A stretch of DNA of 64,000 nt from Rhynchobatus australiae (taxonomy: Eukaryota), in NCBI GenBank assembly GCA_034780895.1, contig JAUZTB010000107.1, positions 59,850,262-59,914,261 on the forward strand, in the 5' to 3' direction. A program made the translations under genes and the position numbers. This document shows positions 56,701 to 59,700 of the stretch, one piece after another; the stretch's first letter is position 1; each line of letters begins with the position of its first letter. Under the pieces are notes generated by a model. That model was not told the DNA's origin and ran no database searches. It saw nothing but the letters and a program-made list of their open reading frames with translations.

Positions 56701-59700
56701 GATGCCTAAAATCCTTGGCAAGCACCATAACTTTCTTATAATTGAGGTAATTTTTTTCCATTTCTCACCTTCAAAGGAAACCGTATTATCATGGGGAAGA
56801 GCCACGTTTTCCGCTTCAATCACCCCGAACAGGCACGTCAAGAGCGCGACAAGACACCCTGTGCAGAGACGCCAGTTGANNNNNNNNNNNNNNNNNNNNN
56901 NNNNNNNNNNNNNNNNNNNNNNNNNNNNNNNNNNNNNNNNNNNNNNNNNNNNNNNNNNNNNNNNNNNNNNNNNNNNNNNGGTTCAATGACCCGGAGCAGG
57001 CCCGTCTGGAGCGGGAGAGGACGCCATGCGCGGAGACACCGGTGGAACCCGTCGACTGGGCCTTCGCTCAGAGGGAGCTGCTCGAGAAACAAGGAATTGA
57101 CATGAAGCAGGAGATGGAACAAAGGTAAATGAGGAAATGTGGAAGAATAATGGTGTCCAAAGAGGGTTAAATGAAGGATGCACTGTAAAGTTCTTTGACA
57201 TGGAGTCGAATGACAATGACTGCATTTAGTCCAGCATAATGGTCTATGTTCGATTACATTCCTTTCTGAAGCAGTGATGTTGAGTTTTGTTAGTTGAAGA
57301 TAATATGGCTTTAATCAGTGAAATATTCCTTGATTATGAAAACCTTAGTTAAAGCCTTGGGTTGGACTGGTACCTATAAAACTGACTTGGCACAATCAGA
57401 TTAGCTTCCAGTGACAACTTTAGATTTTGTACTTGAGTTACCATGGATTGGTTTTCTATTTTGAGACAATAAACCCAAGGGGATTCCTCATTTGGCATGT
57501 CCACCACCTCACTGTCTTAGTATTTTTGATTGCAGTGGTGTAGTGCACTAGATTTCCTTCTATATAAAAAAGGTTACTTGAGAGAGCCTTGACATTTTTG
57601 TCACCTTATAATAATCATTTCACAGTGAAGTAAACATGAATGGATGTGGCATATGTCCAAGCCTTGCATTTCTTTACTGGTGAATTTTCACCGGGAGAAC
57701 AGGGTTAGTTCCAGGAGCTGTACACAAACTATTAAAAGCAACAACATGATACACCCTCACATCAGTTATCTTTCAACCAGCATTAAAATTAGGCTTCTGT
57801 ATTCTGAATTGCTAATACGTCTTAACTAATGAATATTTACATTTATAAAATGAGAATATTTGACATTTTTGAATGGTACTGTTAGTTNNNNNNNNNNNNN
57901 NNNNNNNNNNNNNNNNNNNNNNNNNNNNNNNNNNNNNNNNNNNNNNNNNNNNNNNNNNNNNNNNNNNNNNNNNNNNNNNNNNNNNNNNNNNNNNCCTGTG
58001 ATTTAATTGATATTTCTGTGAATTTCAATGCATGGATTATTAACCTCATTGGCACACATGCAACGCAGAGAGACCTTTAAATTGATTTATAGTGCCTGTT
58101 GTAGCTAACCTAGGAGTGATTGATGGAAGAGCTTTATTTTCACAGAGAATAGAGTCATATAGCACAGAAGCATGTGATTCGGCCCATCATGATGATAATC
58201 ACATTCCTTTCTACACTAATCCCATTTTCCAGCAATTGGTTTATAGCCTTCTATGTCTTGGTTATTTAAGTGCTCATCTAGATACTTATGTAACCAATCT
58301 GTTTTGTTCCTGATCTGGGAGTGATTAATAGGAAAGCGCTGATGGAACTTTATTCTGTATACAGTCCTTATTACACGGTACCCAGCAATATCATGGCCTA
58401 GTGTTGAAGGAGCTGTACAATAAGGAACATATAACCTTTTTTTTCTCCAGGGTTATATCAATCAGTGTTTAATTTTATTCTGCATTGAAGCAATTTGTGA
58501 AATTTCTGTAACTCAGTACCTATTTGACTTCATTGAATTGTTTCTCAGGCTTCAAGAACTAGAAACCCAGTACCGGAGAGAAAAGGAGGAAGCTGATTTA
58601 CTGTTGGAACAGCAGAGACTGGTATGTGACATTACACTTTTCTGAGATTTACTGAGCCAACAGCAGATACCAGGTAATTGTGGTGAATTGAGACTGGCTC
58701 TCATGTAGGTAGAGTGGAGGCAAGGACCAGGAGGCAAAAATGTAATTGGCATCTTTTTAAAGACAAGATGGTGTGGAAGCTATCTATGTACACNNNNNNN
58801 NNNNNNNNNNNNNNNNNNNNNNNNNNNNNNNNNNNNNNNNNNNNNNNNNNNNNNNNNNNNNNNNNNNNNNNNNNNNNNNNNNNNNNNNNNNNNACACCCA
58901 CAAAGGGTTAGGGTGGGTGGACAGGAGGATTACGAGAGTTCCTGAGTGATCGAGTTGGCAAATAGAATGAAGACAGATAAAAATACGGAGAATGCTGGAA
59001 ATACTCAGCAGGTCATGCAGCATCTGAGGAGAGAGAAGCAGAGCTAATCCTTCAGATTAAAGGCCGATCTAAAGCACTACTTTGGCTCCAGTGGGAGTGT
59101 CCAATGCATGTTTCCAGGGATGAGATATACTAAATTTCTGATAATCCAGCATCTGGTTGTTTGGAAATTGTGATGGTTTGGCATCTGGCTCACTCATTAT
59201 AGTCTGGAGTGTGAACCAGGGGGTCAGAGGGTGTGCAGCCAGAGCCTGGGTGTGTGGAGTGTGGATGGGTGGTGCAACCAAAATCAGGGATTGGGCTGGA
59301 ACACCAGGGGTCAGGAATGTGGGAAGATTTGTAACCAGAACTGGGGTATGGAGTGCTTGTACATTTCCTGCTCCCTTTAAAGTCCCCGGGTTCTCAGGAA
59401 ACGTCATTATCCTGCTTTGCAATGTGTAAAAAAGAGTAAAATAAAGTATGTTNNNNNNNNNNNNNNNNNNNNNNNNNNNNNNNNNNNNNNNNNNNNNNNN
59501 NNNNNNNNNNNNNNNNNNNNNNNNNNNNNNNNNNNNNNNNNNNNNNNNNNNNNNNNNNNNNNNNNNNNNNNNNNNNNNNNNNNNNNNNNNNNNNNNNNNN
59601 NNNNNNNNNNNNNNNNNNNNNNNNNNNNNNNNNNNNNNNNNNNNNNNNNNNNNNNNNNNNNNNNNNNNNNNNNNNNNNNNNNNNNNNNNNNNNNNNNNNN

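Follow-up and report, generated by a model that had tools for sequence, protein, structure and literature searches.

A second, teleost-type copy of a KIF1A exon segment in the Rhynchobatus australiae assembly is very probably a contamination chimera

The window analysed here, a stretch of 64,000 nucleotides from the assembly of Rhynchobatus australiae (G000:C107:59850262-59914261), contains motor-to-stalk exons of the kinesin gene KIF1A, the remainder of which is located at G000:C107:59914909-60002321. One exon of this gene is represented by two divergent pieces, separated by a run of 100 N. Numbering is that of the window, and the features are the following:

14696..63565, forward strand: host KIF1A motor-to-stalk exons, from a tblastn exon map; the gene extends past the window
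56777..56879, forward strand: nt 1-103 of the 181-nt KIF1A exon in native form, where the FHA region ends; the gap truncates the exon here, and an acceptor AG precedes this 5' part at 56775-56776
56880..56979, no strand: placeholder of 100 N, which very likely stands for overlapping ends (a negative gap) and conceals no intron
56980..57095, forward strand: tract of foreign DNA, likely teleost kif1ab exon sequence, which repeats exon nt 37-103 and replaces native nt 104-152
57096..57124, forward strand: junction zone and native 3' exon end (29 nt), within which foreign sequence would give way to native
57125..57887, forward strand: native donor and intron, of host-like composition, matching sequencing runs X15 and X1

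The left copy (the segment 56777-56879) lacks a donor because the gap intervenes; the right copy (56980 onward) has a donor GT at 57125 and lacks an acceptor, its sequence opening at the gap. In the part they share, 56813-56879 and 56980-57046, the two give an ungapped alignment with 17 differences in 67 nt. Fourteen of these differences are at third, two at second and one at first codon positions, and they lead to four amino-acid changes (H/D, Q/L, D/E and K/R). This recount bears out the coordinates, the number of differences and amino-acid changes and the preponderance of third positions given in an earlier note, which had been made from the sequence alone; its 23-residue reading of the right copy stands except for the first residue, which is only partly read, since 56980 is the second base of an Arg codon. 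The 50 identities compare with a maximum of 34 in 100,000 shuffles. Both copies are in frame with most differences silent, and when fused on their overlap they give a 181-nt exon.

The right copy had also been described as rich in GC3 and CpG. The contrast with the left copy is present but modest: in the 21 codons that they share, GC3 amounts to 17/21 on the right against 11/21 on the left, with seven CpG against five. The GC3 of 0.73 of the right copy is not distinctive alone, as two native exons have values of 0.72-0.73; for the tract 56980-57095 it is 29/38. Searched against the assembly, the right-copy DNA has a single match, which is itself.

The assembly is rich in gaps. These were surveyed in the window and the 90 kb downstream, with a test for overlapping flanks that permits at most one mismatch in 20. 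Overlaps of 9-51 nt were found at eight of the 28 gaps of 100 N and at none of the 44 gaps of other lengths. The gap at 56880 falls outside these eight, its overlap being too divergent for the test. Among the gaps with overlapping flanks, the one at 15713-15812 splits the KIF1A P-loop exon, and its exact 11-nt overlap makes a short false repeat; others are at window positions 1992, 28209 and 29023 and at L019, L021, L022 and L026. The motor-domain exon 22488-22731 ends in a gap of 137 N, and KIF1A residues of about 179-202 are without a tblastn match in the window. The remaining KIF1A exons, over 90 kb, contain no second foreign tract.

With the right copy (47 residues) as query, 100 of the best 120 proteins, of about 7,000-8,000, are 100% identical. 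All 92 named proteins among the matches listed are from acanthomorph teleosts, with KIF1A or Kif1ab as the gene name in those that carry one, and none is from a chondrichthyan. The Pfam domains of the matches (PF00225, PF00498 and PF12423) are those of kinesin-3. A sequence search of the PDB with the right copy gave no matches and is uninformative. The left copy retrieved, among the matches listed, named proteins from 14 chondrichthyan genera, and left-type residues are present in 111 of the 112 motif-bearing proteins within its best 120 matches (again of about 7,000-8,000). A D-type motif or two copies of the exon were seen in none of the 120 left-copy matches listed; since both lists hold the best 120, a chondrichthyan D-type isoform might still rank lower.

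The same division appears at diagnostic columns, which we defined as positions where nine chondrichthyan and nine acanthomorph KIF1A proteins have no common residue. At these, the right copy has four teleost and no chondrichthyan states, and the left copy is chondrichthyan at four of four. The rest of the window gives 62 chondrichthyan, one teleost and ten other states (overlapping HSP ends may count twice), and KIF1A beyond the window 123, one and five, respectively. The two isolated teleost calls come from alignments that run past splice sites into introns, and the diagnostic-column scan of the gene found no teleost state at genuine exon columns elsewhere. Identities summed crudely over HSPs for the exons of the host KIF1A amount to 0.81-0.86 with 14 shark, ray and chimaera proteins and 0.71-0.77 with four teleost proteins. 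Judged by its residues, then, the left copy is chondrichthyan KIF1A, and the right copy is, at the protein level, of teleost type.

A contig from a relative crosses the site. Assembled from run X15 (2113 nt, depth 14), it aligns with 56533-56877 and then with 57045-57576, skipping 167 nt, which correspond to the 100 N plus the 67 duplicated nt. X15 contigs are 92-96% like the window, and the intron, aligned to 57576, falls in the 90-95% class. This continuity indicates that the relative has one 181-nt exon and that the second copy is followed by an intron of the host, orthologous to that of the relative. The intron (57125-57887) is single-copy in the assembly, with a GC content of 0.356 and a CpG observed/expected ratio of 0.17, its neighbours having ratios of 0.19 and 0.23. 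Two observations that the earlier note had named as speaking against a real exon duplication have thus been made: a single 181-nt exon in a related genome, in one relative's contig, and a teleost as best match of the second copy, at the protein level.

The X15 contig also helps to delimit the tract. Its differences from the window, listed, all but seven of them, for positions more than about 30 nt from the end of an aligned piece, include 57077, 57078, 57080, 57083, 57089, 57092 and 57095, or seven of the 19 nt in 57077-57095, all of them silent on reading the codons. No difference is listed in 57096-57136, and three are listed in the left exon piece. Fisher tests of these contrasts gave p = 5e-4 and p = 7e-4, the latter for 57096-57136 against 57077-57095, with windows picked post hoc. 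The pattern suggests that the foreign tract ends no earlier than 57095 and no later than 57124. The foreign segment, starting at 56980, would accordingly be about 116-145 nt long, and native exon nt 104-152 appear to be absent from the assembly at the KIF1A gap.

Run X1, which is identical to the window wherever its contigs were aligned, is possibly the source of the assembly and so is not independent of it. Its contigs, with depths of 4.6-8, are identical to the window over 56532-56879, ending at 56879 like the assembly, and over 57231-57600. Across 56880-57230 X1 gave no contig except a paralog piece, and the continuity of the exon rests on the 92-96%-alike relative. We sampled 23 words from 56980-57210 and sought them in sequencing runs, as counts irrespective of word position. 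None of the 24 runs listed contains half of the words. X1 contains 0.43 of them, where 0.42 is expected from native 57096-57210 alone, and X15 contains 0.22, as expected from its listed differences (0.22); both values are consistent with the proposed limits of the tract and are not proof of them. Thin host coverage, together with a rare foreign read dropped from the contigs, fits the X1 data. Runs X2-X6 and X11 each contain 5-7 of the 23 words, and none yielded an aligned KIF1A-type contig, which, some contigs having been filtered, carries no weight either way: X2, X4 and X5 gave only divergent KIF1C-like paralog pieces, X6 a 43-nt match at the intron edge and the other two nothing. No RNA run among those listed shares words of 56980-57210.

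The assembly contains two paralogs of the host gene, KIF1B (C72) and KIF1C (C83), that share the motif. KIF1B is mismatched to the tract at 19 of 67 nt and then at 18 of the next 78. KIF1C is mismatched at nine of 42 nt in the part readable before its own N run; it retains the H and shares the L residue with the right copy. The X1 contig of KIF1C departs from the tract at 57086. The homologous KIF1C-like exon (G000:C83:10447730-10447807) is also cut by N, though an X1 contig spans it. A teleost Kif1ab protein was also used to search the assembly, and among the 28 candidates scored out of 237, under stricter criteria, no other teleost KIF1A exon stood out; the small contigs C44769 and C27049 resemble other kinesins. 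The former (912 nt, GC 0.59) has a P-loop exon of kinesin-3 type, with 70-78% likeness to KIF1A, that may belong to a host paralog or to a contaminant.

Teleost-type DNA is present in the assembly as mitochondrial sequence. A search for COX1 identified four genes, full-length and open in frame under translation table 2, that are 74-80% alike in DNA. One of them (L007, on G000:C61) has 95-96% identity with two shark proteins, with which it grouped (support 100/99); upstream of COX1, the first approximately 1030 bases of this host-type mitochondrial contig are N. The three others (L008 on G000:C22289, L009 on G000:C118 at 42.45 Mb and L010 on G000:C16236) have teleosts as best matches, at 92-94%, with sharks at 88-91%. 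They are about 80% alike mutually, have AT-rich third positions and form a clade of their own (98/87), placed beside killifish with weak support (84/84). The tree was made from 25 of 120 matches, including two sharks and no ray, and its deep branches are weak, with a lamprey among the teleosts. L009 lies within a block of about 17 kb running from CYTB to ND1 (C118:42442574-42459638), which includes control-region-like sequence and is flanked by N runs inside the 92.5-Mb scaffold C118; it could be mistaken for a copy of mitochondrial DNA in the nucleus or for a transfer. Three CYTB genes (L027-L029) are 73-74% alike, and none of these three matches is clearly host-type. The intact COX1 frames and the non-chondrichthyan placement argue against old host nuclear copies, and the library is likely to have contained DNA from three or more bony fishes. 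We infer a link between these mitochondrial contaminants and the nuclear tract in KIF1A.

We hold with high confidence that the second copy of the KIF1A exon is an assembly chimera and not a real feature. Very likely, about 116-145 bases coding for a teleost protein segment have been fused with the exon end and intron of the host, whose KIF1A is likely to have one ordinary 181-nt exon. At the protein level the best match of the tract is a distant taxon, its flanks are of the host lineage, and independent teleost-type DNA is found in the same assembly. The earlier note had ranked a chimera or contamination first, and the teleost peptide, the single exon in the relative and the teleost-type mitochondrial DNA agree with this. 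Its suggestion of foreign DNA stitched in applies to the exon tract and not to the whole right contig, as the switch would be at about 57096-57124, within the exon. Purifying selection in both lineages, which it had also proposed, holds only in the sense that the copies are orthologous exons of two distant species.

Short-read assemblers join sequences on shared words of 21-31 nt. The 29-nt zone 57096-57124 encodes residues that are identical in both groups. Under thin host coverage, the left contig would have ended at position 56879. A small number of contaminant reads, perhaps a single one, may have shared an exact stretch with the conserved end of the host exon in 57096-57124, and such reads would then have extended the right contig leftwards. 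The scaffolder would not have merged the resulting 67-nt overlap, 25% divergent, and would have written 100 N in its place. As to the entry of the fish DNA, shared sequencing, handling or tissue are among the possible routes.

A real tandem pair of KIF1A exons, possibly mutually exclusive and with the intervening intron hidden in the gap, would account for two pieces that are both in frame and differ mainly by silent changes, and a gap of nominal length may conceal sequence. A divergence of 25% implies an old duplication, which is expected also in a relative that is 92-96% alike; the X15 contig of the one relative instead crosses the site with a single exon and no insertion, and neither a D-type nor a two-copy protein is among the best 120 left-copy matches. 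Independent drift would hardly be expected to arrive at the acanthomorph state at four of four columns. The tandem pair, one of the options of the earlier note, therefore finds no support, and we consider it very improbable. We give similarly little credence to another of its options, a chimera with the host paralogs KIF1B or KIF1C. Both genes are in the assembly with the shared motif, and the L residue is common to KIF1C and the right copy, but the mismatches of KIF1B (19/67 and 18/78) and KIF1C (9/42, with the H kept), the divergence of the X1 contig of KIF1C at 57086 and the lack of a second DNA match in the assembly refute this explanation for the two loci; a fourth host paralog, unassembled, is strictly speaking conceivable. 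Germline transfer of teleost kif1ab DNA, replacing or duplicating a portion of the host exon, would also leave a teleost-type tract that adjoins, with no gap, a native exon end and intron at the homologous site. Such a horizontal transfer appears extremely improbable, as the tract opens at a gap with the native version adjoining, is no longer than one short read (for an assumed read length) and is accompanied by other teleost-type DNA in the assembly, and the best run (X1) contains only 0.43 of the words. Recombination of fish kif1ab into the ray in the host lineage alone, leaving the native and teleost versions side by side, is to be rated just as low.

Two further explanations are close to negligible. 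The whole right contig, 56980-57887, might be foreign and have been placed by scaffolding; the mitochondrial block in scaffold C118 demonstrates that such placements occur. The intron of this contig, however, matches X15 (in the 90-95% class) and X1 (identically), is carried together with the upstream intron by one X15 contig and is host-like in composition. For a false duplication from two haplotypes, one may point to the gap between the copies and the overlap-type gaps nearby, as in known false exon gains. The copies are 25% divergent, whereas the host and another species show only three listed differences over some 100 nt, so that the earlier note was right to consider the copies too divergent for alleles; in addition, the overlaps at other gaps tolerate at most one mismatch in 20, and the right copy has a teleost identity.

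For the biology of the ray, the second copy very likely has no consequence, KIF1A appearing to keep its usual single exon. The practical warning is that the assembly carries teleost-type DNA, of three mitochondrial types, partly inside chromosome scaffolds, and that a foreign piece of about 130 nt can become fused into a conserved exon in it. We expect that a fusion of this size would probably fall below the reach of contig-level contamination screens. A gene model at the KIF1A locus would combine codons of the ray with those of a teleost. Where a duplicated exon, gene conversion or a transfer is claimed next to a gap in this assembly, the claim needs a check against the reads.

No earlier description of the KIF1A exon artefact was found in our look-ups. 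The literature search found neither a published duplicated form of the present exon nor foreign-read chimeras, and the spliced KIF1A exon described in the part of PMC13646608 consulted lies in DUF3694, elsewhere than the present one. Among known KIF1A proteins, those of chondrichthyans (Pristis, Mobula, Hemitrygon, Carcharodon, Scyliorhinus and others) resemble the left copy, as they do every other exon of the gene, with no second form of the exon among the proteins listed. Acanthomorph KIF1A/Kif1ab has the same residue as the right copy at 47 of 47 positions, in line with the likeness to teleost kif1a that the earlier note had pointed out for FNDPEQAR. The locus is unlike the acanthomorph genes in that the donor and intron behind the right copy are chondrichthyan. 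Short teleost read-through proteins mostly continue with C or W after the exon; two of the 100% matches stop at the exon, like the window.

Assembling mixed DNA may merge similar regions into chimeras, according to the part of PMC8862208 consulted. The case described here resembles redundant contamination, as set out there, in that a foreign homologue stands beside the host's own over exon nt 37-103, and replacement contamination in that a foreign segment stands for the missing host nt 104-152. The cases in that part of the source are mainly microbial and concern whole genes or contigs, whereas the present one is a vertebrate-in-vertebrate tract of about 120-145 nt within one exon. The main text of PMC9516828 does not mention contamination (searched as 'contamina'). 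In the part of it consulted, false exon gains and false chimeric gains are like the present case in having a duplicated exon piece with a gap separating the twins; the twins described there come from the other haplotype, from an error copy or from another gene of the same animal, and here the twin would be the ortholog of another species.
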